In this document: positions 13,842 to 54,033 of the stretch, piece by piece | How the letters are laid out: each line of letters opens with the position of its first letter | How positions within the stretch are numbered: the first letter of the stretch is position 1 | Source of the DNA: Arenicellales bacterium | GTDB taxonomy: Bacteria; Pseudomonadota; Gammaproteobacteria; Arenicellales; JAJDZL01 | Reading direction: 5' to 3' | NCBI GenBank assembly: GCA_965205205.1 | Contig: CBDBFX010000002.1 | Location: forward strand, 1,373,506-1,437,505 | Length of the DNA: 64,000 nt | Program-made: the position numbers and the translations under genes | Notes under the pieces: generated by a model | What the model was told of the DNA's origin: nothing | The model's input: the letters and a program-made list of their open reading frames with translations, nothing else | Database searches by the model: none

Positions 13842-13926
13842 CAGGAGTTTCCAGTCCAGCCCCCGTTCGGGTGTATACTGGAGTCCAAGCGGGGCAAGTC
13901 AATGCGTGGACCCGCATGGAGGTGTG

Positions 13927-16887: not shown

Positions 16888-17002
16888 GGTCTTGGATATG
16901 ATTGATCATCCAGTCGGGTAAAAAACAGCCCTATCATACCACTTTTCAATGAAAAGTCCGCGAACAGTAATTTTTCAGCCCCCCCTGAAACCTCCGTATT
17001 TA

Positions 17003-18830
17003 GTGTCTGCAAGAAAACTCGAAAAAGTGAGATAATTATCTGATATCATGTGAATAATATCGTATAATTGTGAACGAAGAATTGGCCTTTTGCCCTGAAA
17101 AAGGGGCGATTTCAGCCGATTCGCCGACTTTTCACCCAATCTTCGCCAGGCAGACAGGCAATGAGAAACATCATCAACCCGAATCACGAACTGGGCGGCA
17201 TTGACATCACGGCCATTGAGATCGACCACCACTCGAGAGACGACATGCCGGCGGTGCTGCTGGGCCTGCAGACGCTGTATCGCGACCCGCAGGTGAGAGA
17301 GCGGCTGTTCGCGCTGCTGGAGACGGAGGCGCTGCCGGGGGTGGACCTGAACAACGGTCGCCCGGGCATGGCGCTGTGGCCGGGACTGGTGATGGCGGTG
17401 GTCAAGCAGGCGTTGAACTGCGATTTCGATCGCCTGCATGATCAGGTGCGAAACCATGTGGACCTGCAGCGGATGATGGGTCATGGTTCATTGATGAAGC
17501 CGCCGTACACGCTGCAGCAGGTGGTGGACAATGTGAATCTGTTCAGTGCGGAACTGCTGGACAAGGTGTCGGCGCTGGTGGTGGAGGCGGCGCACCGGCG
17601 TGCGGGTCATCAGCCGGGCGAGGCGTTGAAAGGACGCTGCGATTCATTCGTGGCGCAGACGGACGTGCATTATCCGACCGACACCGGGCTGCTGAATGAT
17701 GCGGCGCGCCGGCTGCTGGGTCTGATGCATCAGGCGCAGGCGTGTCATCAGGTGTCCGGGTGGCGGCAGTACCGACATCTGCAGCGAAAGCTGCGCGGTC
17801 TGTACAACGGCATCCGCCAGGCGAAGCAGGCGAAGGCGGACCCGGCGGCTTTGAAAGAATATCTGAGTTGGTGCGACGGGGTGGTGTCACGGGTCTGCGA
17901 GACGCGGGATCAGCTGATGCGGCAGGGGGTGTCGGGTGCGCTGCTGGACGAGGTGGTCACGTTCCTCGGCTACGCCGAGAAGCTGTCGGCTCAGGTGGTG
18001 CGGCGATTGCTGCGCGGCGAGCAGATTGTGCACTCGGAGAAGATCTTTTCGGTGTTCGAGCCGCACACTCGGTGGATCGTCAAGGGCAAAGCGGGGGTGG
18101 CGGTGGAGTTGGGGGTGCCGGTGTGCATCGTCGAAGATCAGCATCAGCTGATCCTGTGTCAGAAGGTGATGTGGGAGGGCGGTGATGTGGACCATGCGGT
18201 GCCGGTGATCAAGGAGACGCTGCGGCGTCATCCGCAGTTGGAGAAGTGCAGTTTCGACCGCGGCTTTCACAGTCCGGCGGTGCAGCGGCAGTTGCAGGAG
18301 CTGCTGACTTACTGCGTGCTGCCGGTCAAGGGACGGCGCTCGCAGGCGGTGCGGGAGCGGGAGGGGCAGGCGTGGTTCCGCGAGGCGCGTCGTCAGCATC
18401 CGGCGGTGGAGTCGGCGATCAACAGTCTGCGGCATCGGGGTCTGGTGCGGGTGCGCAGTCATGGTGCGGCGGGCTTTGCGCGCACGGTGGCGCGGTCGGT
18501 GCTGGCTTACAACGTGCATCGGTATGGGGTGATGGTGCGCGACGAGTTGCGGGAGCGGGAGCGGCGGAAGCGGGCCGCCTGACGGCGGCGGTTGGTCAAA
18601 AGGGGTGTTGAACCGGTCCCGCCAGGGGACTGGATGGAGACCTATGGGCCGAATTCGGCATTCGCCGCCCGACTGACGAAAAAAGCGTGCCAATCGGCGC
18701 AAAACGGCCGAATGTTCAGAAATCTTCTCTCCCCGAACCCTCAGCCATCCATTTTCTTCTCGTTTCGAGGCTTCATAAAATCAACATCGCCGGACATTTC
18801 ATGCGAAAATGGGGGTTTTCTGGCAGACAC
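17003..18830 (+). mobile_element. IS-C copy 2 (1828 bp)
   Basis: Same termini as copy 1. 6-bp TSD TATTTA (16997-17002 and 18831-18836). Lies inside IS-D copy 1. Confidence 0.9.
17161..18582 (+). CDS. DDE transposase of IS-C (473 aa)
   Basis: Full-length paralogue of 2495..3922. Confidence 0.75.
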   Translation: MRNIINPNHELGGIDITAIEIDHHSRDDMPAVLLGLQTLYRDPQVRERLFALLETEALPGVDLNNGRPGMALWPGLVMAVVKQALNCDFDRLHDQVRNHVDLQRMMGHGSLMKPPYTLQQVVDNVNLFSAELLDKVSALVVEAAHRRAGHQPGEALKGRCDSFVAQTDVHYPTDTGLLNDAARRLLGLMHQAQACHQVSGWRQYRHLQRKLRGLYNGIRQAKQAKADPAALKEYLSWCDGVVSRVCETRDQLMRQGVSGALLDEVVTFLGYAEKLSAQVVRRLLRGEQIVHSEKIFSVFEPHTRWIVKGKAGVAVELGVPVCIVEDQHQLILCQKVMWEGGDVDHAVPVIKETLRRHPQLEKCSFDRGFHSPAVQRQLQELLTYCVLPVKGRRSQAVREREGQAWFREARRQHPAVESAINSLRHRGLVRVRSHGAAGFARTVARSVLAYNVHRYGVMVRDELRERERRKRAA

Positions 18831-18866
18831 TATTTACTGACCCGGCAGGCTTGGCGGGAATTGCTG

Positions 18867-19824
18867 TGCACAGATCGTCGGCCGCATCAAGGCTACGGTC
18901 CTCGATGCGGGTGCCGGTCTTGAGCACCCGGAAGTACTCCTCAATGCTCCAGCGGACTTGATACCAACCTTGGATGCGCCGCGCCCACGCGGCCGTGGCC
19001 TCGCCCTCGGAACACAGCAGCAGCCAGTGCAGCGGCGGGCGGCCTCGTCCGGCGTCGTCGCGTCGCTAACCCGCACCGTCATCCCCTGATGACCCTCCAG
19101 TACATCGGCCGAACTGACCCGGGCATTGGACAGCAGCCGATAGGCCTCCCGCTGACCCGCCTCGTCTGGAAAAATCTCCGACACCGGCGACCGCGGCCGC
19201 TGCTGCCAGCACCGACACATCTCGATCAGCCGCTGCCGCAGACGACCATCCGACAGACCGTTCCCACCTAACTCCCGAGTCGCCCACCGCCGCGCGCACC
19301 GCCCCCACCGGCAACGCCTACAGCGCCGCCCGCCAACCCGCCACCAGCGGCTTCACCCACACCGCTCGACTCAACCCCTCGCCACCACTCGGCGGGCGAC
19401 CCGACGTCTGCCCCACAGACGACCACCCCGCCGCCACAAAACCGATGCCACCCAGCACCCCATGACGTTCGCTGTGGATCAGCCAGCACACCTGTTTGTC
19501 CGGCTACCGCGGCTCCCCCTCCGGATTATGCCAAGCCATCATCGCCCGAAACTGCCGCCCAGCCTGCTCATCGGCCACCAGCACCAGGGGCACCGCCCCC
19601 AAATCCGCCAGCGTCCCCGATACGTATACCGCCGCCGGCTCCGGCAACCCGGCCGTCGAACGCACCGGCTCCGGTCGCGCAGCTGCGACGTCAACTGCGT
19701 GCGCGTGGTCCCGCCACCTGCCGGAACTAGTCCACCGTCTCCCGATCATATTGTCGCATGCCGATTTGAATGCCACATAATTTAGCAGATTATTGTCTTC
19801 GTGTTAAGAGTGTCGAAGTGACAG
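18867..19824 (-). mobile_element. relic of an IS-A-like element with multiple internal deletions
   Basis: Patchy homology to IS-A on the minus strand (WSIEEYF region, YRLLSNARVSSADVLE, DUF4338 pieces). Terminus is the reverse complement of CTGTCACTTCGACACTCTTAACACGAAG, ending at 19824. Near-duplicate of 58400..58800. Confidence 0.75.
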
Positions 19825-20070
19825 GTCCCGGACCGCTCTGCTTTCGAATGCCGCACCCTTCCCGTCTCTGACCCCTGCTTTAATGACTCTCCAATCGCTT
19901 TCCAATGGCTCAAAATGGAGACAGCGAAATTGCCTCAGCATATAATGAGGTCCACAAACAATAAAATTTTGACTTGATCACGCAACGTTAAATGTCTCGA
20001 TTTGATTATTACAGAAGCAGGGGTGGAAGGATTGAATGATGTCTCAAACAGTCACCAGTCGGTCGTTGGC

Positions 20071-20640
20071 ATGAATACCGCGACATTTGATACATACGCG
20101 GCCGCGAGTGAGCTGCAGGCGCACGGCTTCACCGAAGACCAGGCTGTTGCGACTGTTTCAATGGTTCGCAGCGCCATGAACGAAAGCGTCGCTACGAAAG
20201 CTGATATTGCACAGCTTGAAAGTAGCATGAAGGCTGACTACGCGCAGCTTGAAAGTAGCATGAAGGCTGACTACGCGCAGCTTGAAAGTAGCATGAAGGC
20301 TGATATTGCACAGCTTGAAAGTAGCATGAAGGCTGATATTGCACAGCTTGAAAGTAGCATGAAGGCTGACTACGCGCAGCTCGAAAGTCACATTCAGACG
20401 TACAGTGCGCAGCTGGAAAGTCGGATGGAGACTCTGGAAAGTCGGATGAAGGCTGACAATGCACAGCTTAAAAGTGACATGAAGGCTGACAGTGCTCGTC
20501 TTGAATATCGGATGGAGACTCTGGAAAATCGGATGAAGGCTGACAATGCTGAGCTTGATAGCCGCTCGACCAAACGGTTGTACGTTGCTGCATTTGGTAT
20601 CGTCGCAATCACAGTTGGATTGCTGAAGCTCCTTGACTGA
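20071..20640 (+). CDS. DUF1640-like tail-anchored coiled-coil protein with 11-aa tandem repeats (copy 1)
   Basis: N-terminus MNTATFDTYAAASELQAHGFTEDQAVA matches the DUF1640 pattern. Six ADI/YAQLESSMK repeats. C-terminal TM segment LYVAAFGIVAITVGLLKLL. Start at ATG 20071 is preferred over the track's TTG at 20002. Confidence 0.65.
   Translation: MNTATFDTYAAASELQAHGFTEDQAVATVSMVRSAMNESVATKADIAQLESSMKADYAQLESSMKADYAQLESSMKADIAQLESSMKADIAQLESSMKADYAQLESHIQTYSAQLESRMETLESRMKADNAQLKSDMKADSARLEYRMETLENRMKADNAELDSRSTKRLYVAAFGIVAITVGLLKLLD
20200..20397 (+). repeat. 6 x 33-bp in-frame tandem repeat
   Basis: GCTGA(T/C)(A/T)(T/A)(T/C)GC(A/G)CAGCTTGAAAGTAGCATGAAG repeated head to tail. The paralogue at 59176..59406 has 7 units. 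Confidence 0.9.
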
Positions 20641-22870: not shown

Positions 22871-22985
22871 CCGCATCATAGCCACCGACCTAAGCGACGG
22901 CCACACGCACCGAGGGGGTGCGAGGGGCCGCTCTGTCTGCAGAACGCCCGCAGGGGTGCCTTCACACCGCCGCACCGGCGCGGAC

Positions 22986-25595
22986 CTGTCAACAAACCAC
23001 ACTTAACACGAAGAAAATAATTTGCTAAATTATGTGGCATGCAAATCGGCATGCGACAATATGACAAAGAGACGGTAGCTTGGTTCCGGCAGGCGGTGGT
23101 CGGGGGCGAGACCTCGCGGACGCAGTTGGCGTCGCAGCTGTGTGAACGGCTGGACTGGCGCAATGCGAAGGGCGAGCTGTGTGAGGCGTCGGCCCGAAAG
23201 GTGCTGCCGACGCTGGCGTTGCGGCTGGACGTCAAGCTGCCGGCGCCGGTGCGGCCGGCACCGTTGCGTTCGGCGGCCGGGTTGCCAGCGCCGCCGGTGG
23301 TCTGCGTGTCGGGGTCGCTGGCGGATTTGGGGGCGGTGACTTTGGTGCCGGTGGTCGATGAGGCAACCAGCGTGCCGTTTCGGGCGCTGATGGCCTGGCA
23401 TCATCCGGAGGGGGAGCCGCGGCATCCGGGCAAGCAGCTGTGCTGGCTGATTCACAGCGAACGTCATGGGGTGTTGGGTGGCATCGGATTTGTGGCGGCG
23501 GGGTGGCATCAGCAGGCGCGCGACCGGTTCATCGGCTGGGGTGCGCGGGCGCGGGTGGCGAACCTTCATCAGGTGGTGAACCATCATCGTTTTTTACTGT
23601 TGCCAGGGGTGCGGGTGGCGAATCTGGCGTCGCATGTGCTGGGTCAGGCGGTGGCGGCGTTGCCGGCGGCCTGGTGGCGGCGTCATCGGGAGACGGTGGT
23701 GCTGACGTATACGTATGTGGGCCCGGCGCATGCGGGGACCTGTTATCGGGCGGCGGGATGGTCGTGTGCCGGACAGACGTCGGGTCGCTCGCCGAGTGGT
23801 GGCGAGGGGGTGCGGCGGACGGTGTGGATGAGGCCGCTGGTGGCGGGGTGGCAGGCGACGCTGCAGGCGGCGCCGGTGCGGACGTTGCCGGTGGGTCCGG
23901 CGCGGCATGCGGCGGGCGACTGGGCGACCCGGGAGTTCGGTGGGAACGGTCTGACGGATGGTCGTCTGCGGCAGCGTCTGATCGAGATGGGTCGGTGCTG
24001 GCAGCAGCGGCCGGGGGCGCCAGTGGCGGAGATTTTTCCGGAACCGGCGGATCAGCGGGCGGCCTATCGGCTGCTGTCCAATGCCCGGGTCAGTTCGGCC
24101 GATGTGCTGGAGAGTCATCAGGCGATGACGGTGCAGCGGGTGGGCGAGGCGGACGGGACGGTGCTGGTGGTGCAGGACACCACGGTGCTGAACTACCAGA
24201 CGCTGCGCGACTCGACCGCCGGTCTGGTGGCGATTGGTGGCGGCGGTTCGGGCAGTGTGGGGGTGGTGGCCCATGTGCTGCTGGTGCTGACGCAGACGGG
24301 TCAGCCGTTGGGGGTGTTGGATGTGGAAGCGGATTTTCGGGCGCCGGGGCCAAAGACCGCGCGGCGGGCGGCGGCCGGCGCCAAGAAGGAAAGTGGTCGG
24401 TGGCTGCGCGGCTTCGAGCGCACGGCGGAGCTGGGGCGGGCCGATGGCGACAGGCGGGTGGTGACGGTGGGCGACCGCGAGGCGGACCTGTGGGCGCTGT
24501 ATGCGCGCCAGGCGGTGGAACCGACCGCCGGTCTGTTGGTGCGGGTGGCCGCGGGGAATCGGCGGCGGGTGCAGGTCGGCGATGAGACGCCACTGCTGGA
24601 AGACTACCTGGCCTCACTGGCGCCGTGCGCCACGACCGAGGTGGCGGTTCAGGCCCGTGGCGGGGCGCACGCCCGCGGCCATCGGACCGTGTCGGTGAAC
24701 CTACAGATCGCGCGGGTGCGCGTGTGTGCGCCGCGCGGCGAGCAGCCGTCCCACCTGACGCTGACGGCGGTGCGGGTGAGCGACGCGGCACCGGAAGACG
24801 GCCGCCCGCCGCTGCACTGGCTGCTGCTGTGTTCCGAAGGCGAGGCCACGGCCGAGTGGGCGCAACGCATCCAAGGTTGGTATCAGCGCCGCTGGAGCAT
24901 TGAGGAGTACTTTCGGGTGCTCAAGACTGGCACCCGCATCGAGGATCGGCAGCTTGATGCGGCCGAAGACCTGTGCAAGTGTCTGTGCTTCGATGCCATT
25001 GCCGCCTGGCAGGTGTTCGCCCTGCAGCGGGCCGCCCGCCATCAGCCGGAGTGCCCGGCCGAGCAGTTCGTCACCGGCGAGCAGATCGAGGTGCTCTATG
25101 CCTGTCTGCGCCGGGTGCGCATCCGACATCCGCGCGGCCCGCCCAAGGGCGCGCTTGACATCCGCACCTTTGTCATTGATGCGGCCCGCTTCGCCGGCTT
25201 CCGACCGTCGCGTCGGCAACCGCTGCCGGGGGCACAGAAACTGTGGAGCGGTCTGCGCTATCTGCAGTGGGCCCTGCTCGGCTATCAGGCCGCCGTTGAA
25301 GACGAGTCCCGGCCGCGTCGAAGACGACCGAGCCGGCGTTCTTGACGCCGGCCGCGCGGCCGGCACCAACCGGCCGCCAACCGCTCTCGGTCCGACCGGC
25401 CGAGACGGCCGCGCGGGCCGAAAACCCCCTCATCCGACCCGGCGCACCACCCGCGGCACCCGCCACCGACTCCCCACGGCCCGCACCGTCCCCTCACCGC
25501 CAAGCCACTACGAAAAACAGACCTGAAAGGGCCGATCCCTTGCCTTCCGATTGCAAAGGCGCGACATCACTGTGTTACGTGTGACTTCGTGACAG
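22986..25595 (+). mobile_element. IS-A copy 2 (2610 bp)
   Basis: CTGTCAACAAACCACACTT at 22986 and the reverse complement of CTGTCACGAAGTCACACG ending at 25595. 9-bp TSD GGCGCGGAC (22977-22985 and 25596-25604). Confidence 0.9.
23039..25345 (+). CDS. IS-A transposase (768 aa): DUF4338-like N-domain + Tn5-type DDE domain
   Basis: Intact. Differs from copy 3 at only two positions that I can see (CEA/CES and VRP/VRS). Confidence 0.85.
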   Translation: MQIGMRQYDKETVAWFRQAVVGGETSRTQLASQLCERLDWRNAKGELCEASARKVLPTLALRLDVKLPAPVRPAPLRSAAGLPAPPVVCVSGSLADLGAVTLVPVVDEATSVPFRALMAWHHPEGEPRHPGKQLCWLIHSERHGVLGGIGFVAAGWHQQARDRFIGWGARARVANLHQVVNHHRFLLLPGVRVANLASHVLGQAVAALPAAWWRRHRETVVLTYTYVGPAHAGTCYRAAGWSCAGQTSGRSPSGGEGVRRTVWMRPLVAGWQATLQAAPVRTLPVGPARHAAGDWATREFGGNGLTDGRLRQRLIEMGRCWQQRPGAPVAEIFPEPADQRAAYRLLSNARVSSADVLESHQAMTVQRVGEADGTVLVVQDTTVLNYQTLRDSTAGLVAIGGGGSGSVGVVAHVLLVLTQTGQPLGVLDVEADFRAPGPKTARRAAAGAKKESGRWLRGFERTAELGRADGDRRVVTVGDREADLWALYARQAVEPTAGLLVRVAAGNRRRVQVGDETPLLEDYLASLAPCATTEVAVQARGGAHARGHRTVSVNLQIARVRVCAPRGEQPSHLTLTAVRVSDAAPEDGRPPLHWLLLCSEGEATAEWAQRIQGWYQRRWSIEEYFRVLKTGTRIEDRQLDAAEDLCKCLCFDAIAAWQVFALQRAARHQPECPAEQFVTGEQIEVLYACLRRVRIRHPRGPPKGALDIRTFVIDAARFAGFRPSRRQPLPGAQKLWSGLRYLQWALLGYQAAVEDESRPRRRRPSRRS

Positions 25596-25806
25596 GGCGC
25601 GGACGCCGCCGACCGCAGGGTTGAGGCACCGAAACCGTGCAAAACTCACCGCAGACGGCGTCTGCTCTCAGCCTGGTCCCTGCCATCGGCATTCGATCGC
25701 CTTCCAAACTGTCCGCTATCAACCCATGACCCTAGGCTGACTTACGACTTTTGAATTGTCCTGGATGGCCTATCAACCTTGTTTGCGATTAATGGAAGGA
25801 GTGATA

Positions 25807-26745: not shown

Positions 26746-27099
26746 TTAGATTTTTACGTAAAGCAGGTCAAAGGCGGTTCGCTGCAGCTCGGTCGGTTCC
26801 GTCAACTGACTGAAACGCCGCTGAAACTGTTCGATGACAACAGTGTTGCGACACAAAGTGCCCAAGTGTCCGAGCAGGCCGCGGAAGTGATGGGGCGGAT
26901 GACCGTGTACCGTGCGCCGCGTCGTCGCTTTACGCCGGGCACTTGTAGAAGGAACGCTGGGCCGCACCGGCGAGCCGCGCCGCGCCTCCTGGCGGTTATC
27001 CTCCGCCAACAGCATTGGCGCCCAGGCCGGTCTTATATGCCACTCCACGTGATAGGCAGGCAGGCACAGGAAGACGTGGGAGCGAACCTGTTCAGTCAA
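26746..27099 (-). pseudogene. IS1634-type B transposase C-terminal fragment
   Basis: The 117-aa ORF contains VRSHVFLCLPAYHVEWHIR, the conserved IS1634 C-terminal block. Confidence 0.7.
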
Positions 27100-27245
27100 C
27101 CGATGATGGATCGGACGCGCCTGCAGATCAATCGTTTTCAGACAGCGGAACGCTTACTCCAGACGGGCCAGGCTCTTGTAGGCGCCGCACGGCGGCACTC
27201 GCCTCCAGTCTGGATTCGGACACCGAGGTGCGAACCACATAGATA

Positions 27246-29079
27246 GTGTCTGCAAGAAAACTCGAAAAAGTGAGATAATTATCTGATATCATGTGAATAA
27301 TATCGTATAATTGTGAACGAAGAATTGGCCTTTTGCCCTGAAAAAGGGGCGATTTCAGCCGATTCGCCGACTTTTCACCCAATCTTCGCCAGGCAGACAA
27401 GCAATGAGAGACATCATCAACCCGAATCTCGAACTGGGTGGCGTCGACATCATGGCCATTGAGATCGACCACCACTCGAGAGACGACATGCCGGCGGTGC
27501 TGCTGGGCCTGCAGGCGCTGTACAGTGACCCGCAGGTGAGAAAGCGGCTGTTCGCGCGGCTGGAGACGGAGGCGCTGCCGGGGGTGGATCTGAACAACGG
27601 CCGCCCGGGCATGGCGCTGTGGTCGGGACTGGTGATGGCGATGGTCAAGCAGGCGTTGAACTGCGATTTTGATCGTTTGCATGATCTGGTGGCCAACCAT
27701 AATAAACTGCAGCTGATGCTGGGTCATGGTACATGGATGGAGCCGCCGTACACGCTGCAGCAGGTGATCGACAACGTAAATCTGTTCCGCGCGGAACTGC
27801 TGGACAAGGTGTCGGCGCTGGTGGTGGAGGCGGCGCACCGGCGAGCGGGTCATCAGCCGGGCGAGGCGTTGAAAGGACGCTGCGATTCATTCGTGGCGCA
27901 GACGGACGTGCATTATCCGACCGACACCGGGCTGCTGAATGATGCGGCGCGCCGGCTGCTGGGTCTGATGCATCAGGCGCAGGCGTGTCATCAGGTGTCC
28001 GGGTGGCGGCAGTACCGACATCTGCAGCGAAAGCTGCGCGGTCTGTACAACGGCATCCGCCAGGCGAAGCAGGCGAAGGCGGACCCGGCGGCTTTGAAAG
28101 AATATCTGAGTTGGTGCGACGGGGTGGTGTCACGGGTCTGCGAGACGCGGGATCAGCTGATGCGGCAGGGGGTGTCGGGTGCGCTGCTGGACGAGGTGGT
28201 CACGTTCCTCGGCTACGCCGAGAAGCTGTCGGGTCAGGTGGTGCGGCGGCTGCAGCGCGGCGAGCAGATTCCGCACTCGGAGAAGATCTTTTCGGTGTTC
28301 GAGCCGCACACTCGGTGGATCGTCAAGGGCAAAGCGGGGGTGGCGGTGGAGTTGGGGGTGCCGGTGTGCATCGTCGAAGATCAGCATCAGCTGATCCTGT
28401 GTCAGAAGGTGATGTGGGAGGGCAGTGATGTGGACCATGCGGTGCCGGTGATCAAGGAGACGCTGCGGCGTCATCCGGATCTGAACCGATGCAGTTTCGA
28501 CCGCGGCTTTCACAGTCCGGCGGTGCAGCGGCAGTTGCAGGAGCTGCTGACTTACTGCGTGCTGCCGGTCAAGGGACGGCGTTCGCAGGCGGTGCGGGAG
28601 CGGGAGGAGCAGGCGTGGTTCCGCGAGTCGCGTCGTCAGCATCCGGCGGTGGAGTCGGCGATCAACAGTCTGCGGCATCGGGGTCTGGTGCGGGTGCGCA
28701 GTCATGGTGCGGCGGGCTTTGCGCGCACGGTGGCGCTGTCGGTGCTGGCTTACAACGTGCATCGGTATGGGGTGATGGTGCGCGACGAGTTGCGGGCGCG
28801 GGAGCGGCGGAAGCTGAAGCGGGCCGCCTGACGGCGGCGGTTGGCCAAAAGGGGTGTTGAACCGGTCCCGCCAGGGGACTGGATGGAGTCCTATGGGCCG
28901 AATTCGGCATTCGCCGCCCGACTGACGAAAAAAGCGTGCCAATCGGCGCAAAACGACCGAATGTTCAGAAATCTTCTCGCCCCGAACCCTCAGCCATCCA
29001 TTTTCTTCTCGATTCGAGGCTTCAGAAAATCAACATCGCCGGACATTTCATGCGAAAATGGGGGTTTTCTGGCAGACAC
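27246..29079 (+). mobile_element. IS-C copy 3 (1834 bp)
   Basis: Same termini. 6-bp TSD TAGATA (27240-27245 and 29080-29085). Inserted between LDGI and YVVRTS of the IS1634-B relic. Confidence 0.9.
27404..28831 (+). CDS. DDE transposase of IS-C (475 aa)
   Basis: Full-length paralogue. Confidence 0.75.
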   Translation: MRDIINPNLELGGVDIMAIEIDHHSRDDMPAVLLGLQALYSDPQVRKRLFARLETEALPGVDLNNGRPGMALWSGLVMAMVKQALNCDFDRLHDLVANHNKLQLMLGHGTWMEPPYTLQQVIDNVNLFRAELLDKVSALVVEAAHRRAGHQPGEALKGRCDSFVAQTDVHYPTDTGLLNDAARRLLGLMHQAQACHQVSGWRQYRHLQRKLRGLYNGIRQAKQAKADPAALKEYLSWCDGVVSRVCETRDQLMRQGVSGALLDEVVTFLGYAEKLSGQVVRRLQRGEQIPHSEKIFSVFEPHTRWIVKGKAGVAVELGVPVCIVEDQHQLILCQKVMWEGSDVDHAVPVIKETLRRHPDLNRCSFDRGFHSPAVQRQLQELLTYCVLPVKGRRSQAVREREEQAWFRESRRQHPAVESAINSLRHRGLVRVRSHGAAGFARTVALSVLAYNVHRYGVMVRDELRARERRKLKRAA

Positions 29080-29216
29080 TAGATACCGTCCAGCCGTGCT
29101 TCTCGGGGGATAGAATCGGTGTTGCGGGCGTAGTCAAAGGTGGTGTCGGTAATCCCGGTGTCGAAATGCTTGGCCACCTTGAATCGGTCCTTGACCCGAC
29201 CCAGGCGCAGGACGAT

Positions 29217-29420: not shown

Positions 29421-29525
29421 GATGCATCGGGTCAGTTGCATCGACTGCATTGACCGGCACAAAGCGACCGTCGAAACCTGACTGCGGTTCTGGTTTTCTC
29501 AGGCCTGCTGGCGGCCCCGGCCGCG

Positions 29526-30893
29526 GTGTTCGCGGAAGCGTCCTGGTACGGCTCGCTGCGCGGCGGCGTCCTGCTCGACAAGGGCAAAGATGCCAGGTTC
29601 TACGACGGCTACTCGCGCTGGGGCATCAAAGGCTCGAACGAGATATCGGAAGGGCTGTCCGCAGTCTACCGCTTCGAGCACAAGTTCAGCACCGAGGACG
29701 CCGGCCAGGCCGGCGGCCGGCTGGCCTACGTGGGCCTGTCCGGTGGTTTTGGCTCGCTGACGCTGGGACAGATCTGGAGCGCCAGCTACAACCACGCCGG
29801 CGTCATCCGCGACATCGGCAATTATTACAGCAGTGGCGACACCAGTGGCCGGATCGGCAACACCCTGTCCTACGCCTATTCGAACGACGCCTTCAGCGTG
29901 CAGTTCGACGCCATCATGGACGGTAAGAAGGACTCCGGCAACGCCATCGATCAGTGGGAACTCGGGGCGACGGTGAACATCGGCGATATCGGCAAAGTCG
30001 CCTTCGCCCATGTGAAGAAGGAAGACGTCAAAACGGGCAATAAAATGGTGAGGGTGACCAAGTGGTCCGGCGGCGGCCAGTGGCTCTACAGCCCGAAACT
30101 ATGGTCGAAAAACGCGGAAAGCACCTGGTCCATCAGTAAAAAAGGAACGGACAACACTCTAACTGCTGGTACTGGCGAGTTTCAGGAAGAATTTGAAAAA
30201 GGAAAGGAGATGAGAGTCGTTGTTCAACCAATAACCGTTTATGTCAAGCTGCCAAACACCAATTATGACGCGGATAAAAAACAATTGAAAGATGCGGTGG
30301 CGGGTACCCTTCATGGCCATCCCAGTTTTCAACGAATCACAGGAAGTGGTGGTGATTCGAATGTCAAACTTAATCCCAAGGTTTCTTTTCGGTATGGTGC
30401 TGCGTGTGATCCCACCACCCCACCAAGAGACGAGACTAAATGTGTAAAGACTACCGCCTATCAGGCTGAATTGAAACATAATGCAATAGTCGACAACGGC
30501 GTATTCTTTTTCGCTCCCGGTCATGTTGAGGATGAGATGGACTATGGCGAGAAGTCAAGCCACGTGTCGGCATCGTTTGACCTCGGTGCGGTGACCCTGG
30601 GTCTGGGCCATTCGACGACGAAGTTCATGGATCCGATGAAGACGAAGAAGGCGAAGACGAACTACATCGGCGTCAACGGTGCCATTGGCGACACCGGGCT
30701 GGACTGGCGGGCCTGGTATCGGACCAAGGAGGAGGTGAAGGACAACAACATGACGGTGAAGTCGAAGCCCTGGGGCATCGGTTTGGGCAAGAAACTCGGC
30801 GGTGGCGCTTTGGCCTATGTCGAGCATTGGAACGATGGCGCGAAAGGCGCAAAGAAATCCGGCACGGTGGTCGGCCTGCGCGTCGATTTCTAG
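29526..30893 (+). CDS. porin P2 (general bacterial porin type, type-I central insert); start unresolved
   Basis: EASWYGSLRGGV...RWGIKGSNEISEGL...YVGL.GGFG.LTLGQ N-block and C-terminal ...GGGALAYVEHWNDG...TVVGLRVDF (terminal F). Track coordinates use GTG 29526. The signal-peptide codons (LTAVLVFSGLLAAPAAVFA) lie in frame upstream, behind a TGA at 29451-29453. Confidence 0.75.
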   Translation: MFAEASWYGSLRGGVLLDKGKDARFYDGYSRWGIKGSNEISEGLSAVYRFEHKFSTEDAGQAGGRLAYVGLSGGFGSLTLGQIWSASYNHAGVIRDIGNYYSSGDTSGRIGNTLSYAYSNDAFSVQFDAIMDGKKDSGNAIDQWELGATVNIGDIGKVAFAHVKKEDVKTGNKMVRVTKWSGGGQWLYSPKLWSKNAESTWSISKKGTDNTLTAGTGEFQEEFEKGKEMRVVVQPITVYVKLPNTNYDADKKQLKDAVAGTLHGHPSFQRITGSGGDSNVKLNPKVSFRYGAACDPTTPPRDETKCVKTTAYQAELKHNAIVDNGVFFFAPGHVEDEMDYGEKSSHVSASFDLGAVTLGLGHSTTKFMDPMKTKKAKTNYIGVNGAIGDTGLDWRAWYRTKEEVKDNNMTVKSKPWGIGLGKKLGGGALAYVEHWNDGAKGAKKSGTVVGLRVDF

Positions 30894-31198: not shown

Positions 31199-31976
31199 CT
31201 AGAAACTCACGCCCAGTCCGACCACCGTGCCACTGGATTTCTTTGCTCCTTTCACACCGTCATTCCAATGCTCGACATAAGCCCAGGCGCCACCGCCCAG
31301 ATCCTTGCCCAACCCGATGCCCCAGGGCTTCGTCTTCGTGCCGTCGGCATGCTCCTTGGTCCGATACCAGGCCCGCCAGTCCAGCCCGGTGTCGTCAATG
31401 CCACCGTTAACGCCGATGTAATTCGTCTTCGTCTTCATGGCTCCCGCCTTGTTCGACTTCATCGTCGAATGACCCAGTCCCAAGGTGACCGCACCGATTT
31501 CAAACGATGCCGATATGTGATTCGACTTGCTGCCCGGCTCGCTGATAACTCTTTTGGTGACTGATTGCGTGCTGGCCGGTGTCAAGACTTGACTCGGCAA
31601 ATAGTAGAACGCCTGTATCTCGTCACTAACCTTTTTTGCGCCGGCCGATGTTCCCCCTGGAGTTTCGGTCGTGCCGAAATGTGCATAGGCGTCTATTTTC
31701 ACACACGCATCGGAAATACCATCATCAGTGTTTTTTTTGTCTATACATTCATATTTACCACTAGCCTTTTCGGTCTCAATAACGAACCAATAACTGTCGG
31801 GGTCGCCAACGGGATGATTGCCTTTACGAAGGGCCGTTATTTGAAGGTTGTATAGAGTGATTTGCTGAGTGTCCTTGCTGAGATCTGGAGCGTCAAAAGC
31901 CCCGCCTTTCTTCACATAGACCTTGATTTTCTTGACCTCTCTGAATTCAACAGCACCGGTGTTAGCAACAACTAGA
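31199..31976 (-). pseudogene. porin P3, 3' part (type-II central insert + C-block)
   Basis: ...ITALRKGNHPVGDPDSYWF...SKSNHISASFEIGAVTLGLGHST...AYVEHWNDG...VVGLGVSF. Separated from its 5' part by IS-C copy 4. Confidence 0.85.
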
Positions 31977-38534: not shown

Positions 38535-39199
38535 TTAAGTGAACCTATTCCGACTTTGGGTGGTGTCATCGTGACCGTCGTCTGATTTTCCATCTGATCT
38601 TCCATACTCACATGGGCGAAAGCGACTTTGCCGATGTCGCCGATGTTGACCGTTGCCCCGAGTTCCCACTGATCGACGGCCTTGCCGGTGTCTTTCCCGC
38701 CTTCCATGATGGCATCGAACTGCACGCTGAAAACGTCGTTCGAATAGGCGTAGGACAGCGCGTTGCCAATCCGGAAGCTGGTGTCCGAATCGCTGTAATA
38801 ATTGCCGATGTCGCGGATGACGCCGGCGTGGTTGTAACTGGCGCTCCAGATCTGTCCCAGCGTCAGCTTGCCGAAACCGCCGTCCAGGCCCACGTAGGCC
38901 AGCCGGCCTTTGGTCGCTTTCCTGGCCAGACCGGCATCCGTGGTGCTGATGGCGTGCTCGAAGCGGTAGACTGCGGACAGGCCTTCCGAGATCTCGTTCG
39001 AGCCCTTGATGCCCCAGCGCGAGTAGCCGTCGTAGAACTCGGCGTCCTCGCCCTTTTTCAGCTCGACGCCGCCGCGCAGCGAGCCGTACCAGGACGCTTC
39101 CGCGAACACCGCGGCCGGCGCCGCCAGCAGGCCTGAGAAAACCAGAACCGCAGTCAGGTTTTGACGGTCGCTTTGTACAGGTGAATTCAACTGATGCAA
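38535..39199 (-). pseudogene. porin P3, 5' part (the only copy with an in-frame start and open leader)
   Basis: TTG start at 39199, then HQLNSPVQSDRQNLTAVLVFSGLLAAPAAVFA/EASWYG... through KVAFAHVSMED and the start of the type-II insert. Ends at the IS-C TSD. Confidence 0.85.
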
Positions 39200-39214
39200 C
39201 TGAACTGGTGCATC

Positions 39215-39435
39215 ATGGAAGCCATGTGGAATGAGGAAAAGGAAAGGGGTCTGACGGAGTTTTCAGAACGGTCCGACAGGGAAGAGGCACTCTATTTCGT
39301 GGGTCGGCCAGACCTCATCGCTGGGATTGAGAAAACGGTCGGTCAGATGTGGCGGCTGGTGGCCGGAAAGGAGGTGTCGGACCTTGTCAGTTCCGGTCTG
39401 AATCTGTCAGACCGGCCCCCTGGCTGGTGCGGGAT
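39215..39435 (+). pseudogene. ATPase 5' stub
   Basis: MEAMWNEEKERGLTEFSERSDREEALYFVGRPDLIAGIEKTVGQMWRLVAGKEVSDLVSSGLNLSD. Homology extends a few codons past the palindrome (39395-39413), then is lost. Confidence 0.8.
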
Positions 39436-40271: not shown

Positions 40272-41780
40272 ATGGAAAAATCATCGCGCATTACCATACC
40301 GAGAGTGGCCATTGGTGGATTGTGGCACGAAACCAACACTTTCGCCCCCGGCATCACGCGTCTCGAAGATTTCGTCGCCTATCAATATGCGCGGAATAAT
40401 GAACTGCTCGAAAAGTACACCGGTACCAACACCGAGCTGGGTGGTATGATCCGAGGATCAACCAATATCGAGCTGATACCCACTCTCTTTGCGGCGGCGG
40501 TACCATCCGCAACGATTGAATATCAGTCGTTTATCGAGCTGGTTGATGATCTGATCGAACGAATGCAAAAAGCGATGCCTTTGGACGGTGTTGTTCTTTC
40601 ATTACATGGTGCCGCGGTGGCCGACAACATTGACGATGCCGATGCCTGCATTCTCGAACGCGTCCGACAGGCGGTCGGGGACGCGGTGCCGATCATCGCA
40701 ACATTCGATTATCACGCCAATCTGAGCGACAGCATGATACGAACCGCATCGGTACTGATCGGCTACAATACATTTCCGCATACTGACATGGCCGAGCGGG
40801 GCGAAGAGGCGGTTGTCGTGATGAAGCGGCTCCTCACAGAAAATATCAAATTGCATTGCATCCATCGCAAACTTCCACTTCTCACTTCACCTCTGGAACA
40901 GCAGACTGATGAATCTCCCATGCAGGAAATATTGCAAAAGCTTGAAGATCTTGAATCAGGTCCAGCGATTATCAGTGGTTCAGTTGCTATGGGATATCCG
41001 TACAGTGATGTCGCTCATCTCGGCGCGTCGGTCGTCGTTTACGGCAGTTGTTCAGAACGGGCCGAAAACGCGGCCAATATCATCGCATCAGCATTATGGA
41101 ATGCGAAAGAGAAATTTCAGACGCAACTATTGCCAGTTGACACGTGTGTTGACATTGCTGTCAACAGCTCCCAATTCCCAGTCGTAATCGTCGAACCGGC
41201 CGACAATGTAGGCGGTGGCGGTGCTGGTGACGGAACGGCTGTCCTGCAGGCGTTACTGAACGCCAGAGCAGATCGATCAGTCATTGTCATATTCGATCCG
41301 GCCGCTGTCGAAGAGGCCCAAAAGATCGGTGTCGGCAACAGGTGTACGCTTCGCATCGGTGGAAAAACCGATGACAAGCACGGCCAGCCGGTGGCAGCTG
41401 AGGTAGTGGTGAATCGAATAACACCGGGCGAATATGTTCACAAGGGTTCTTACATGACGGGTTATGTCACTTCAATGGGGCAGACTGCATTGGTTGAATC
41501 CCAAGGCGTACAGATCGTACTGACATCCAGGCGCAGTATGCCTTTTGACGCCGAACAGCTGCGTTCACTGAGAATCGAACCTGCAGAACAGAAGATTATC
41601 GTTGTAAAATCTGCGATCGGCTGGAAGGCGGCTTACGGTGATGTCGCAAAGCTGGTGCTGGTTGCCGACACACCCGGCGTCTGTGCGGCTGACCTCACCC
41701 GATTGAACTACCATAAATGTGCAGACTCCCTGTACCCAATCAGGCAATCAACAACATTTTCCGTTGGATCTGATCAATGA
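40272..41780 (+). CDS. M81-family (MlrC-like) metallopeptidase
   Basis: RVAIGGLWHETNTFAP N-terminus and a ~500-aa length are typical of the MlrC/DUF1485 family. Confidence 0.7.
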   Translation: MEKSSRITIPRVAIGGLWHETNTFAPGITRLEDFVAYQYARNNELLEKYTGTNTELGGMIRGSTNIELIPTLFAAAVPSATIEYQSFIELVDDLIERMQKAMPLDGVVLSLHGAAVADNIDDADACILERVRQAVGDAVPIIATFDYHANLSDSMIRTASVLIGYNTFPHTDMAERGEEAVVVMKRLLTENIKLHCIHRKLPLLTSPLEQQTDESPMQEILQKLEDLESGPAIISGSVAMGYPYSDVAHLGASVVVYGSCSERAENAANIIASALWNAKEKFQTQLLPVDTCVDIAVNSSQFPVVIVEPADNVGGGGAGDGTAVLQALLNARADRSVIVIFDPAAVEEAQKIGVGNRCTLRIGGKTDDKHGQPVAAEVVVNRITPGEYVHKGSYMTGYVTSMGQTALVESQGVQIVLTSRRSMPFDAEQLRSLRIEPAEQKIIVVKSAIGWKAAYGDVAKLVLVADTPGVCAADLTRLNYHKCADSLYPIRQSTTFSVGSDQ

Positions 41781-42943
41781 CCATTCCCCGAGAAGCGGTT
41801 TTTCCACAGGAAGAATTTGAGACGCGGCTGCACAACACCCGACAGGCAATGGTGGCACGCAATATGGACGTGCTGATTCTGCATTCAGCGTCCAACATTT
41901 ACTACCTTTGCGGACATCACACGCTGAATTTATGGGACTATCAATGTCTGATCGTGCCACTGGAGCAGCCGCCGATTATGGTTCTCTGGCAGTTTGAGCG
42001 TGGACGGTTCGAAGCATCGGCATACATCGCCGAACTGGATCTTTATGAAACCCATGCCAATCCAGTTCAGGCGACCAAAACATCGCTTTCGAGACGAGGA
42101 CTGCTGAAAGGTACGATTGGCGTTGAAGAAAAGAGCCGGTATCTGGTCCCAATATTGCGCGCTGAACTGGTGGACGCCCTGGAAGGAGCGAGTGTGGTGA
42201 ATGGTTCAGGATTGGTCGACAACGTCAGAAACATAAAATCTGCATCAGAATTGAAAATTATCGATGAGGCCGCGCAACTGACCGATCGGGCAATTCGCGC
42301 GGGATATCAATCCATCGGCCGGGGAAACACCGATTCCGCGGTCGCCGCGCGCGTTGCCTCGGTGCTGATTGAGCATGGCAGTCTTGGGTTTTCGGTCTAT
42401 CCGATCATTTCAGCTGGATATCGGGCCGGGATTCCACACAATAGCAACAGCGGGTATGTCATTCAGAATGAAGATGCCGTATTCATCGAGTGTTCACCGA
42501 GTCATCATTGGTACCACGCACCGCTCATGCGTACCGCGATCGTCGGTACAGCCAGCCCAAAGATCAGGCAGTTCGCCGAACTTGAAAAAGAAGCCGTCGA
42601 TGCGATGCTGGATATCGCAAAGCCTGGCACGCTCGCTTCGGATGTTGCCAAAGTCGCTGAATCCCTAATCGCAACCATTCGAAGCGAGGTTCTGTTTCAT
42701 GAAGTTTACGGTTATCCCGTCGGTATTGGATTTCCGCCCACCTGGGGTGAAGAGTCAGGGTTTGCCATCATTACAAACAACCACCGCCCACTGCAGGCTG
42801 GCATGGTATTTCACATTCCCATGACGCTCCGAGTCAATGGAGAATTTGGTGTCGGACTCAGTGAAACATTCATCGTAACCGAGCGAGGTGCGCCTAGGAC
42901 ATTGAGTACCATTCCAAGAGAGCTGCATCAAATTGTCGAATGA
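41777..42943 (+). CDS. M24-family metallopeptidase (creatinase/prolidase/ectoine-hydrolase-like)
   Basis: 388 aa with a creatinase-type N-domain plus a pita-bread C-domain pattern. Start overlaps the upstream stop (ATGA). Confidence 0.65.
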   Translation: MTIPREAVFPQEEFETRLHNTRQAMVARNMDVLILHSASNIYYLCGHHTLNLWDYQCLIVPLEQPPIMVLWQFERGRFEASAYIAELDLYETHANPVQATKTSLSRRGLLKGTIGVEEKSRYLVPILRAELVDALEGASVVNGSGLVDNVRNIKSASELKIIDEAAQLTDRAIRAGYQSIGRGNTDSAVAARVASVLIEHGSLGFSVYPIISAGYRAGIPHNSNSGYVIQNEDAVFIECSPSHHWYHAPLMRTAIVGTASPKIRQFAELEKEAVDAMLDIAKPGTLASDVAKVAESLIATIRSEVLFHEVYGYPVGIGFPPTWGEESGFAIITNNHRPLQAGMVFHIPMTLRVNGEFGVGLSETFIVTERGAPRTLSTIPRELHQIVE

Positions 42944-44265
42944 ACCTGAATTACGATCAATCGAAAAAACTGTATTCAGCCGCAGGCAACTGCCTGGCCG
43001 GTGGAGTCAGCAGCAATTTTCGTTACTTGGGGTACGGCGAAAGTCCGTGTCCGCTTTTTTATTCGGGTGGAAACGGTTCTAGAATTAACGATGTGGACGG
43101 CAACGTCTATATCGATTACGCACTGGCCAATGGACCGATCATCTTGGGGCACGCGCCCGAAGTGGTGCTTGATGAGGTGAAAGCCACCCTTTCCATGGGA
43201 CAGCTTTTTGCCGGTCAGACCGAGTACGAGCTGGAGTTGGCGCAAAAACTCGTTGAGATCATTCCATGTGCTGAACTGGTACGTTTCGCCTCGAGTGGAA
43301 CCGAAGCCATTCAGGCCGCGGTCAGATTGGCGAGGGCGGCAACTGAGCGAATGAAAATCATCAAATTTGAAGGCCATTATCACGGCTGGACAGACAATGT
43401 GTTCATCAGCGTCAATCCACCCCTAAAGGACGCCGGTCCGGAGTTTCAGCCCATCAGTGTCGCTCAGACCCCCGGCCAATCCATTGGCGCGCTGGATGAC
43501 ATCATTACCCTGCCCTGGAATGATCTTGATCGACTTGCCCAGGTACTGCGAGAGCGTTCGTCAGAAATTGCCGGTGTCGTCATGGAGCCAATCAACTGCA
43601 ATACTGGAGCAATCCTGCCGCTGCCCGGCTATCTGGAAGGTGTACGAGAGCTGACCGAACGGTACAATGTCGTTCTTATTTTCGATGAAGTCATTACTGG
43701 GTTTCGTGTCGCACTGAACGGAGCACAGGGTTTACTTGGCGTTTCACCCGATCTCGCGATATTCGCCAAAGCGCTGGCGGCGGGATTCCCACTTGCCGCG
43801 CTCACCGGAAAAAAGGAGATCATGGAGCTCTTACATACGCGCTCAGTCATGCACGGCGGAACATACAATGCCAATGTCATGTCAGTTGTTGCAGGACTCA
43901 AGACCATTGAATCCCTGCAGGCTGACGGCGGCGCGGTCTACCGACAGATGGAAGCAGTGGGTGGCCAATTGATGAATGGGTTACAGTCTCTCGCCGGGAA
44001 ATATGGAGAACCAATGACGGTTCAGGGTTTGGGATCGGTGTTCCACCCGATTTTTGGTGACCTCGGCCGACCCGTCACACGCTACAGAGACTATCTGAAT
44101 ACGGATGGTGAGCGAAAAAACAGGTTTTATGCGAAACTGCACGGTGCCGGTTCTAGAGTTACCGCTCGCGGCACCTGGTTTCTGTCTACGGCACATAGTA
44201 CCGATGACATTGAAGAAACACTGGAACATGCGGAATGGGCACTGAACAGGCTGACCGATGAATGA
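42940..44265 (+). CDS. class-III aminotransferase (glutamate-1-semialdehyde aminomutase-like)
   Basis: GGVSSNFR, DYALANGPIILGH, SGTEA, VLIFDEVITGFR, FAKALAAGFP (PLP-lysine region). Overlapping start/stop. Confidence 0.75.
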   Translation: MNLNYDQSKKLYSAAGNCLAGGVSSNFRYLGYGESPCPLFYSGGNGSRINDVDGNVYIDYALANGPIILGHAPEVVLDEVKATLSMGQLFAGQTEYELELAQKLVEIIPCAELVRFASSGTEAIQAAVRLARAATERMKIIKFEGHYHGWTDNVFISVNPPLKDAGPEFQPISVAQTPGQSIGALDDIITLPWNDLDRLAQVLRERSSEIAGVVMEPINCNTGAILPLPGYLEGVRELTERYNVVLIFDEVITGFRVALNGAQGLLGVSPDLAIFAKALAAGFPLAALTGKKEIMELLHTRSVMHGGTYNANVMSVVAGLKTIESLQADGGAVYRQMEAVGGQLMNGLQSLAGKYGEPMTVQGLGSVFHPIFGDLGRPVTRYRDYLNTDGERKNRFYAKLHGAGSRVTARGTWFLSTAHSTDDIEETLEHAEWALNRLTDE

Positions 44266-44995: not shown

Positions 44996-45389
44996 TGAAC
45001 CCTGTTTTCGACGAGTATGAGTTGAACGGCTTTTGGTGAGCGCGAGCGTGGGTGACAGGCGATTTGAGATAAGAAAGTCGTGATGTTAAGGTCACCTGAG
45101 CCGATCTCCTATGGTGTGACGGGCAATTGTGTTCGTCGGGTGAATTTCCTGCATTTGGCAGCGAGCACCCCGAAACATTCCACTTGAAAACCGACTCTGT
45201 GTAATAAAATTTTCCATACCAATGCAAATCGGCATTTTTTAGCTTGGCTAAGGAAACAATTCAACCTGAATGATCAGTTCACCGTCATCTGCATGCCACG
45301 AAATTCATCATTCACATGCATGCCACGAACCGATGAGTGGCCGGCTCGCTTTCCACTGCGAGCCGAGCTGAATCCGTACGCCGGACCCG

Positions 45390-46905: not shown

Positions 46906-46928
46906 TACGTTTCCCGATATTCGAAATC

Positions 46929-50701: not shown

Positions 50702-50842
50702 GATGCATCAGATCAACTGTATTCACCGGCGCAAAGCGACCGTCAAAACCTGACTGCGGTTCTGGTTTTCTCAGGCCTGCTGGCGGCGCCGGCCGCGGTT
50801 TTCGCGGAGGCGTCCTGGTACGGCTCGCTGCGCGGCGGCGTC

Positions 50843-53935: not shown

Positions 53936-54033
53936 TGCGGCCGGCGCCGCCAGCAGGCCTGAGAAAACCAGAACCGCAGTCAGGTTTTGACGGTCGCTTT
54001 GCGCCGGTCAATGCAACTGACACCCGATGCATC

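Follow-up and report, generated by a model that had tools for sequence, protein, structure and literature searches.

Putatively silent genes in a recombining outer-membrane porin family

In Brucella, the related porin genes omp2a and omp2b lie in opposite orientation, only omp2b being reported as expressed while omp2a is described as silent, and segmental gene conversion between the two reshapes the surface loops (PMC7050475). Anaplasma msp2/p44 and Treponema pallidum tprK follow a broader scheme, in which many silent copies are associated with few expression sites and mosaic variants result (PMC11946796, PMC10063172). From what a later paper relates of Dichelobacter nodosus omp1, linked variant genes encode the major outer-membrane protein and switching of their 5' end was proposed (Moses et al. 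1995, cited in PMC4196234). The present analysis deals with a 64,000-nucleotide (nt) stretch of an Arenicellales chromosome, hereafter the window, in which tblastn with the porin copy P2 as query finds six porin loci, namely P1, P2, P3, P5, P6 and P7. Four of them (P2, P3, P5 and P6) carry the same damaged 5' end and, judged from sequence, have about an even chance of being silent copies in a recombining porin family, where they would serve as a reservoir for the few porin genes that look expressible. What is said below of leaders and start codons refers to the copies in the window.

The outcome would resemble that in Brucella, i.e. a silent porin copy reshaping an expressed porin by gene conversion (PMC7050475). 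Unlike the two Brucella genes, at least 14 paralogues are encountered here, the presumed silence is traceable to a defined 5' lesion common to several copies, an ATPase gene originally accompanied each unit, and both silence and conversion into an expressed copy are deduced from sequence. The likeness to msp2/p44 and tprK is looser and concerns an outer-membrane family with conserved ends, a hypervariable centre and mosaic copies; in those pathogens, truncated donor cassettes are converted into a single defined expression site, whereas the Arenicellales copies, in an uncultured marine genome, have the full gene length, a signal-peptide coding region and the C-terminal beta-signal. As in D. nodosus omp1, so far as it is described in the paper that cites it, several linked variant genes for outer-membrane proteins occur in a gammaproteobacterium; the model related there is site-specific inversion of a promoter/5' segment (PMC4196234), whereas neither a recombinase nor a crossover site was found here and the window copies retain the entire signal-peptide coding region. 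Finally, the massive load of insertion sequences (IS), the broken copies and the loss of partner genes recall the early pseudogene families of IS-expanded, host-restricted bacteria, from which P2, P5 and P6 differ in having no scattered stops or frameshifts and a dN/dS that is not close to 1. The arrangement is thus a fresh example of an already known kind, and the idea of a cassette reservoir is plausible and partly supported.

A shared lesion at the 5' end of four porin copies

An earlier note on this DNA had regarded the stretch upstream of the signal-peptide region as a coding leader in which either a stop had arisen (TCA to TGA) or a TTG start had been lost to CTG. The four strings it quoted are all present in the sequence. 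P2 reads TTG CAT CGA CTG CAT TGA CCG GCA CAA AGC, with the TTG at 29436 and an in-frame TGA at 29451-29453; P6, on the minus strand, reads TTG CAT TGA CCG GCG CAA AGC (TTG 54016, TGA 54010-54008); P5 reads CAA CTG TAT TCA CCG GCG CAA AGC from 50714, with CTG in place of TTG; and P3, also on the minus strand, reads TTG CAT CAG TTG AAT TCA CCT GTA CAA AGC in an open frame, with TTGs at 39199 and 39190. Between the last upstream stop and the signal-peptide coding region, no in-frame ATG, GTG or TTG occurs in P2, P5 or P6, and in P5 a canonical start is absent from the 27 open codons upstream. The absence of a start from P5 had also been extended to about codon 30 of the mature protein, which goes too far, the first in-frame ATG (50843) being mature residue 13. 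A tandem ATG ATG (29419/29422 in P2) lies outside the porin frame in every one of the four, as described; its distance to CAAAGC is 38, 31 and 29 nt in P2, P6 and P5 as given at the time, but 38 instead of 35 nt in P3. The note had expected products without export signal from the starts of the open reading frame (ORF) track; in practice, the automatic annotation of these genes is wrong, its GTG or ATG starts inside or beyond the signal peptide giving 'porins' that carry none.

The meaning of the leader changes once it is compared with intact units. A related Arenicellales genome that is complete (OZ220493, 3.33 Mb) has this porin/ATPase pairing intact and repeated many times, the porin and a 430-aa ATPase diverging from an intergenic region of ~113 nt. 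This region reads TTGCAT-N19/20-TATAAA ... AAGGTGAT-N8-ATG CCG GTT CTG, that is a -35/-10-like pair, a Shine-Dalgarno (SD) sequence with a duplex of -9.9 kcal/mol and an ATG opening MPVLIFSGLLAAPATVFA; in the intact module, this ATG would open a short signal peptide of the type M-P/A-V/I-L-V/I-F-S-G... In the window, P2, P3, P5 and P6 are homologous over ~330 nt upstream of the leader, which correspond to the first 68 codons of the divergent P-loop ATPase gene; the fragment beside P2 translates to MEAIQDEEKQKSLVEF..FVGRRNLIAGIE, the same 68-codon fragment lies upstream of P3, P5 and P6 too, and a transposase remnant lies beyond it in three of the four copies. Aligned with P1, P7 and OZ220493, the window leaders are 25-35 nt shorter, the gap covering the stretch with the -10-like box and the SD, and all four copies have ACT GCG where relatives have ATG CCG, ATG GCC or ATG ACC, a homology backed by two unrelated metagenome contigs. 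The TGA of P2 and P6 falls inside a TTGAC box that P1 and P7 also carry (GCATTGACT), so that TGA is probably the older state and TCA the derived one. Since the leader aligns to intergenic DNA, contains 7- and 9-nt (non-3n) indels and diverges by 16-28% between copies, more than the upstream junk, it was most likely never coding. The reading as a mutated coding leader is not supported and should probably be replaced by that of a non-coding intergenic remnant.

The same alignment bears on P3, which had been presented as the only start-competent copy and as disrupted by an IS. The disruption stands, an IS4-like element splitting a frame that is open on both sides of it. Start competence does not: the two TTGs have no SD (anti-SD duplex -2.3/-2.8 kcal/mol) and lie in the non-coding remnant, so that they look accidental and P3 is not really start-competent. 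At the candidate starts (the P3 TTGs and a CTG shared by all copies), the anti-SD duplex amounts to -2.2 to -2.8 kcal/mol vs. -6.2 to -9.9 kcal/mol in start-bearing relatives. Consensus scans found no sigma-70-like promoter upstream of P2, P5 and P6, though such scans are uninformative for the relatives as well. The leader pattern is confirmed as a real and non-random observation, due neither to chance nor to assembly noise; the lesions, which recur in the four window copies, consist of substitutions and of deletions common to the copies rather than of homopolymer slips.

Directly downstream of the remnant, a 75-nt block from CAAAGC to the end of the signal peptide diverges by only 1.3-5.3% among the four copies, next to upstream junk with 10-16% divergence and a downstream dS of 0.22-0.32. 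The block is thus 3-10 times more conserved than its flanks, with 1-4 differences observed vs. ~9 expected from the upstream rate. It encodes the h- and c-regions of a signal peptide (LTAVLVFSGLLAAPAAVFA/EA), while P2, P5 and P6 lack a translatable Sec signal peptide. At gathering thresholds no Rfam family was found in the leader/signal-peptide block, the only sub-threshold match being a chance snoRNA (E = 0.48), and its fold is nothing unusual (z-score 0.57), so that RNA does not account for the conservation. The block also contains, at 29505-29515 and likewise in P3, P5 and P6, the motif GCTGGCGG, one mismatch away from the Chi site of E. coli GCTGGTGG; this may bear on a recombination hot spot or perhaps be a coincidence. 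An AAAACC motif at the homology boundary was considered as a Hin/Gin half-site and rejected, being too short and having no matching second half-site.

Full-length porin bodies under purifying selection

The description of the porins as structurally intact is borne out for P2, P5 and P6, which are open for 477, 462 and 480 codons, respectively, counted from CAAAGC, and end in the aromatic residue of the beta-signal; the C-termini found among the copies are ...VVGLRVDF, ...VVGLGVNF and ...VVGLGVSF. Mature P2 matches the Pfam families Porin_4 (63.3 bits for a cut-off of 27, E=4e-17) and Porin_1 (38.4 bits for a cut-off of 23.7). Its AlphaFold2 (AF2) model (pLDDT 85.8, pTM 0.77) agrees with the solved porins OmpT, Omp32, BpsOmp38, PorB and OmpF in Foldseek (E 1e-14 to 1e-10, target TM 0.62-0.78; probability 1.00 for OmpT, Omp32, PorB and OmpF), and the predicted fold is of the 16-strand trimeric-porin type by likeness to these structures, not by a count of strands in the model. 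All four porin frames end in TAG, at 30891 (P2), 52118 (P5), 52559 (P6) and 38528 (P3); those of P2, P5 and P6 are natural stops, while that of P3 is the IS-junction stop of its 5' half.

Ordinary pseudogenes collect scattered stops and frameshifts, and their dN/dS nears ~1. Such lesions are seen in P1, P3 and P7 and not in P2, P5 and P6, i.e. all three uninterrupted copies are open. In the N-terminal domain, dN/dS ranges from 0.33 to 0.62, with Fisher p values of 3e-5 to 0.07 and significance in five of the six pairs. The junk joined to the lesion has meanwhile diverged by 10-16% between copies and has taken up several indels; in simulations with 5-8% neutral substitution per lineage, and with indels not counted, 3-12% of such ORFs stay free of stops. 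The bodies of P2, P5 and P6 do not decay like ordinary pseudogenes, and their substitution pattern points to purifying selection.

Mosaic paralogues and probably expressible copies

Fourteen full-length paralogues of the same 3,805,514-bp chromosome are present in the protein database, so that the genome encodes at least 14. For ten of them, the called N-terminus falls within or behind the signal peptide (MFAEASWYG, MLDKG.., MFEKG.., MFAQS..), including P2 (= P0001), P6 (= P0011) and P5 (= P0021). The doubtful TTG leader of P3 recurs in P0010 and P0013. Most copies are thus without expression signals of their own, the four window copies having lost the -10/SD stretch and the ATG, and 10 of the 14 being called without signal peptide. 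The earlier note had proposed to look elsewhere in the genome for a porin copy whose leader is intact; this search is positive, as two paralogues look expressible by their sequence. P0002, whose DNA was read on a 23-kb contig encoding an identical protein, has TGAGGAACAATC-ATG (GAGGA-N6-ATG) and a signal peptide of 40 residues, within which the homology to the window copies sets in. P0003, judged from the protein N-terminus alone, begins MKIIRNLTAVLVF... and starts as MKIIRNLTAVLVFSGLLAAPAAVFA (MKIIRNLTAV...), the canonical form of P0014 of a related genome (MKFRKNLMPVLIF, AGGAGA-N7-ATG).

Segment by segment, identity among the 14 paralogues amounts to 76-99% in the N-domain and 66-100% in the C-domain vs. 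15-79% in the centre, and the nearest paralogue disagrees between the N, central and C segments. The C-domain of P2 is 100% identical to that of P0008, whose N-domain groups with P0006. P5 and P0010 are 99% identical in the N and 97% in the C segment with only 18% in the centre, where P5 is 79% identical to P0013. P0003 and the start-less P0012 share 135 consecutive identical residues but 15% identity in the centre. In all, stretches of 40-135 identical aa occur within otherwise divergent paralogues, and the duplication of identical segments indicates non-reciprocal transfer. On this sequence evidence the family exchanges segments, also between a start-competent and a start-less copy.

The most suitable explanation would run as follows. 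In an intact module, porin and P-loop ATPase would be transcribed divergently from a region of ~113 nt with a -35/-10-like pair, an SD and an ATG. As the truncated ATPase, the shortened intergenic region and the ACT are common to the four, P2, P3, P5 and P6 would descend from, or have been converted by, one damaged porin/ATPase module, in which the -10/SD stretch had gone, the ATG had become ACT and the ATPase had been cut to 68 codons. With these signals lost, the four copies would not be expressible from canonical signals where they sit, while their bodies would stay full-length, foldable and under purifying selection, and would swap segments with paralogues, including a copy with canonical N-terminus. 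The porin would be made from other loci (P0002, P0003), into which recombination via the conserved signal-peptide/N-terminal block could carry cassette sequence.

If this reservoir is a working one, a dozen or more porin bodies recombine to vary the major surface channel of an uncultured marine lineage of the Arenicellales, and the adaptive value might lie in evasion of host or phage. Surface-protein variation by silent-copy recombination has been documented so far mainly in animal pathogens, e.g. Brucella, Anaplasma and Treponema; the case would bear on the means by which symbionts face host recognition as well as phages with porins as receptors. Related metagenome-assembled genomes (MAGs) derive from host-associated and marine metagenome assemblies. 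Should the copies only be decaying, they would offer a clean case of one dead control region spread through a gene family by concerted evolution.

Alternative explanations

Several observations weigh against a working reservoir. Among the porin bodies of relatives, no shared stretch reaches 80 nt with an identity of 97% or above, so that active copy-and-paste is not a general property of the family, and segment identity gives no direction of transfer. Half of the window copies (P1, P3 and P7) are structurally broken, which fits ongoing decay equally, and a dN/dS below 1 could stem from formerly functional donors via conversion. Housekeeping genes of the window are also weak in SD (-1.3 to -10.1 kcal/mol) and often have none, which makes the missing SD weak evidence of silence. 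The main rival, a serious though unlikely one, is non-adaptive concerted pseudogenisation: a dead 5' end would have been spread by duplication or conversion through the redundant porin family of an IS-swamped, probably host-restricted genome, and ORFs would be open only through recent spread or through repair by conversion from live copies. It agrees with IS sequence making up more than half of the window, with the splitting of P3 and the degeneration of P1 and P7, with full-length ATPases being down to five vs. at least 14 in the related genome, and with an identical lesion in four copies, which implies a single origin; survival of 3-12% of ORFs per copy is low yet possible. It has to contend with three window ORFs and ten start-less paralogues genome-wide that are still open while the lesion-linked junk became 10-16% substituted with several indels, with the dN/dS of 0.33-0.62, and with a 75-nt 5' block far more conserved than its neutral flanks. 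The earlier note had offered three explanations for the leaders, of which both silent or archival cassettes and concerted pseudogenisation fit. The third, read-through of the stop codon, is unlikely because TGA is a normal stop here and because P5 has no upstream start to read through from; recoding of TGA is rejected, as TGA ends nine of the 13 other window genes checked.

Non-canonical initiation, which had been coupled with read-through, could only use the shared CTG (AAC CTG ACT GCG in P2), the sole near-cognate start that the four copies have in common, which lies one codon ahead of the position of the lost ATG. It would yield the signal peptide M-TAVLVFSGLLAAPAAVFA, with transcription from an unrecognised or read-through promoter. 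Relatives have similar signal peptides without charge, MPVLIFSGLLAAPATVFA and MAILVFAGVLSVPSAVFA, conservation starts 18 nt upstream of the CTG, genes of this genome are often without SD, and expression in situ would account for purifying selection. Yet in E. coli initiation at CUG reaches only ~0.1-3% of the level of AUG (bioRxiv 10.1101/063800), a low yield for an abundant porin, the stretch with the -10-like box and the SD is gone, consensus scans found no promoter-like site upstream, RNA structure is ordinary (z = 0.57) and no Rfam element is present; expression in situ by this route is quite improbable. A site-specific inversion of the shufflon type, in which a recombinase acting at the conserved block would place a single promoter/5' end before one or another porin body, might be suggested by the tail-to-tail pairs in alternating orientation (P2/P3, P5/P6), by the sharp upstream boundary of the conserved 5' block, by the nucleotide-identical ~40-nt 5' element of start-less copies in relatives, and by OZ241837, where a full-length copy is followed downstream by five others, four of them in convergent orientation to it. 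Against this, the copies of the window have ~330 nt of upstream junk in common instead of the unique junctions that some relatives do show, the duplicated identical segments indicate non-reciprocal conversion, no recombinase gene lies within the porin units or within 10 kb on either side in two relatives, and the integrase trio of the window (9567-12383) is 17 kb off and partly truncated, so that inversion is very improbable. An artefact of assembly or sequencing at the TGA, CTG and ACT positions could be suspected from the metagenome-assembled source chromosome and the highly repetitive region, but is next to negligible given that substitutions and shared multi-nucleotide deletions recur in four diverged copies, that the long IS and housekeeping ORFs of the window are intact and that the same kind of start-less copy exists in independent assemblies.

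Two further ways of reaching the porin frame from the tandem ATG were rejected. Coupling through an upstream ORF (uORF) is contradicted by the poor conservation of the ATG ATG uORF among copies, as it ends at a TGA overlapping the CTG (C-TGA) in P2 and P5, terminates early in P3 and runs in a different frame in P6. A programmed frameshift from the ATG frame is contradicted by a frame relation that varies between copies and by the absence of a slippery site.

Start-less porin genes in relatives

Beyond the window, 120 database homologues include ~18 with a full signal peptide, whereas in roughly 60 only 7-14 residues are present, with the same c-region at their end (MTNLSVPSVIFA/DASWYG, MS(V/I)PSV.., MPSVVFA) and ~16 are of a medium-length MPVLIFSG/MAILVFAG type, the remainder being truncated calls. 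Where DNA of the short form was readable, the 'M' codon is TTG or CTG, not ATG, and no hydrophobic mini-ORF that would make a split signal peptide lies within 400 nt upstream of the start-less relatives. One MAG (CBDEVD...) has nine short-form genes, with dS >1 (saturated) in most pairs and dN/dS of 0.1-0.35, and a terminator of its own follows every one of the eight full-length genes that were examined. These genes share a nucleotide-identical ~40-nt 5' element (TGAGTATACCCTCTGTTATCTTCGCAGATGCC...) with a sharp upstream edge, the identity of which is 97% within the genome vs. 64% between genomes, compared with 69% vs. 68% for gene bodies. The pattern of short, ATG-less 5' ends was noted on L017, L022, L026, L027, L031, L041, L044, L047 and L050 (~2000 in each) and in the proteins P0034-P0120. 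In OZ241837, two full-length and several short porin copies form a cluster; long and short porin genes of relatives show no recent identical stretch (at least 80 nt at 97% identity or more). The OZ241837 cluster (L051, 3131-6720 and 13796-17344) is flanked by a Gabija-like pair (OLD-family TOPRIM ATPase and UvrD helicase) and by type I-C cas genes (Cas7, Csd1, Cas5d), i.e. a defence-island setting.

It is fairly unlikely, though worth stating, that start-less porin genes are a programmed feature of the whole Arenicellales porin family and not an accident of one genome. Most family members in public data encode no more of the signal peptide than its final 7-12 residues, as in ..(TN)LSVPSVIFA/DASWYG, and full-length 5' ends (MKKL... 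type) may number only one or two per genome; recombination coupling a single promoter/signal-peptide 'exon' to many porin bodies would fit, with the window copies as a degenerate branch, and the purpose of such a coupling could be the evasion of phage or host. The family-wide pattern may thus reflect one 5' end coupled to many porin bodies, or else an unusual export signal. This family-wide question is of more interest than the window locus itself, which is of moderate interest.

Organisation of the window

The coordinates of the porin copies and of their neighbours are gathered in Table 1. The porin copies alternate in orientation as tail-to-tail pairs, and a strong terminator-like hairpin (31173-31146) lies directly 3' of P3 and was found after no other copy.

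Table 1. Porin copies, partner ATPase genes and associated IS elements in the 64,000-nt window
Feature	Position	Strand	Remarks
P1, truncated degenerate porin	13536-13856	-	Longer intergenic region kept, own ATG (MAVLAFS..)
Full-length partner ATPase (AAA_22/AAA_16, Pfam)	13927-15234	+	Divergent from P1
IS4-like insertion sequence (DDE_Tnp_1 transposase, Pfam)	27244-29081		Upstream of the P2 unit
Truncated ATPase 5' fragment upstream of P2	29217-29420	-	68 codons; ATG 29420-29418; homologous to 13927-15234
P2 leader, probable non-coding intergenic remnant	29421-29459	+	TTG 29436, TTGACC box 29449-29454, TGA 29451-29453
P2, tblastn match	29442-30890	+	tblastn
Conserved 75-nt block (CAAAGCGACC...GTGTTCGCG) in P2	29460-29534	+	Encodes QSDRR-NLTAVLVFSGLLAAPAAVFA; CTG 29478-29480, ACT 29481-29483
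Mature P2 porin ORF, intact	29535-30893	+	452 aa plus TAG; identical to database protein P0001
P3, 3' half	31199-31976	-	Open as far as ...VVGLGVSF
P3, tblastn match	5' half 39193-38564, 3' end 31534-31202	-	tblastn; split
IS4-like element interrupting P3	31977-38534		Carries two inverted copies of another IS; self-BLAST map
P3, 5' half	38535-39215	-	Leader remnant with TTGs 39199, 39190; conserved block 39175-39101; N-terminal domain
P5 leader remnant and 75-nt block	50703-50806	+	Remnant 50703-50731 (CTG 50717 for TTG); block 50732-50806, CTG 50750
P5, tblastn match	~50714-52117	+	tblastn
Mature P5 porin ORF, intact	50807-52120	+	462 codons from CAA; database call P0021 begins at ATG 50843
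Mature P6 porin ORF, intact	52559-53926	-	480 codons from CAA; database protein P0011
P6, tblastn match	54019-52562	-	tblastn
P6 leader remnant and 75-nt block	53927-54032	-	Remnant 54032-54002; block 54001-53927, CTG 53983
Full-length partner ATPase, second copy	61441-62757	-	Divergent from P7
P7, degenerate porin	62833-63566	+	Internal deletion, frame change; longer intergenic region and ATG (MAILVFSGAMAASAAVLA) kept

The partner ATPase is an uncharacterised 430-aa P-loop protein (AAA_22/AAA_16) with some nSTAND-like matches, on the function of which searches of NCBIfam and of PDB sequences yielded nothing useful. Porin/ATPase pairs also form palindromic repeats (porin<-ATPase-> <-ATPase porin->), as on L052 at 3136-4428, 4909-6207, 15864-17162 and 17730-19022. 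Full-length copies of this ATPase in the source genome and its relative have been counted above.

As for the IS, the IS4-like element is present in four copies and a 2.6-kb IS in three, with nested copies within P3. The ends of the IS that splits P3 are TAGTGTCTGC...GCAGACACTA. The sequence at 26850-27244, which precedes the IS4-like insertion upstream of P2, carries on the homology with the P5 unit (50043-50445). The three copies of the 2.6-kb IS (6718-9331, 22981-25596 and 55413-58030) are 99.3-99.5% identical, and its transposase of 768-828 aa has a DruA-like domain (PF14236) together with a DNA-binding domain of the Tn5 type; a related version of 756 aa is nested in the IS that splits P3. 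On the minus strand, the trio at 9567-12383 consists of three adjoining tyrosine-recombinase genes, like a 'recombinase in trio' element, the third being cut to 216 aa, and no link between this trio and the porin copies was found. Two copies of a CCDC90-like coiled-coil protein with 11-residue repeats (ESSMKADIAQL) are encoded on the plus strand at 20002-20640 and 58978-59649 and vary in repeat number (212 vs. 223 aa). The sole IS-free and ordinary block of the window, 40272-49850, carries metabolic genes, namely those for an M81 (MlrC-like) peptidase, an M24 peptidase, a class-III aminotransferase, an Amdase-like protein and GcvT/H/P, and has a G+C content of ~52% vs. 60-70% in its IS-rich surroundings.

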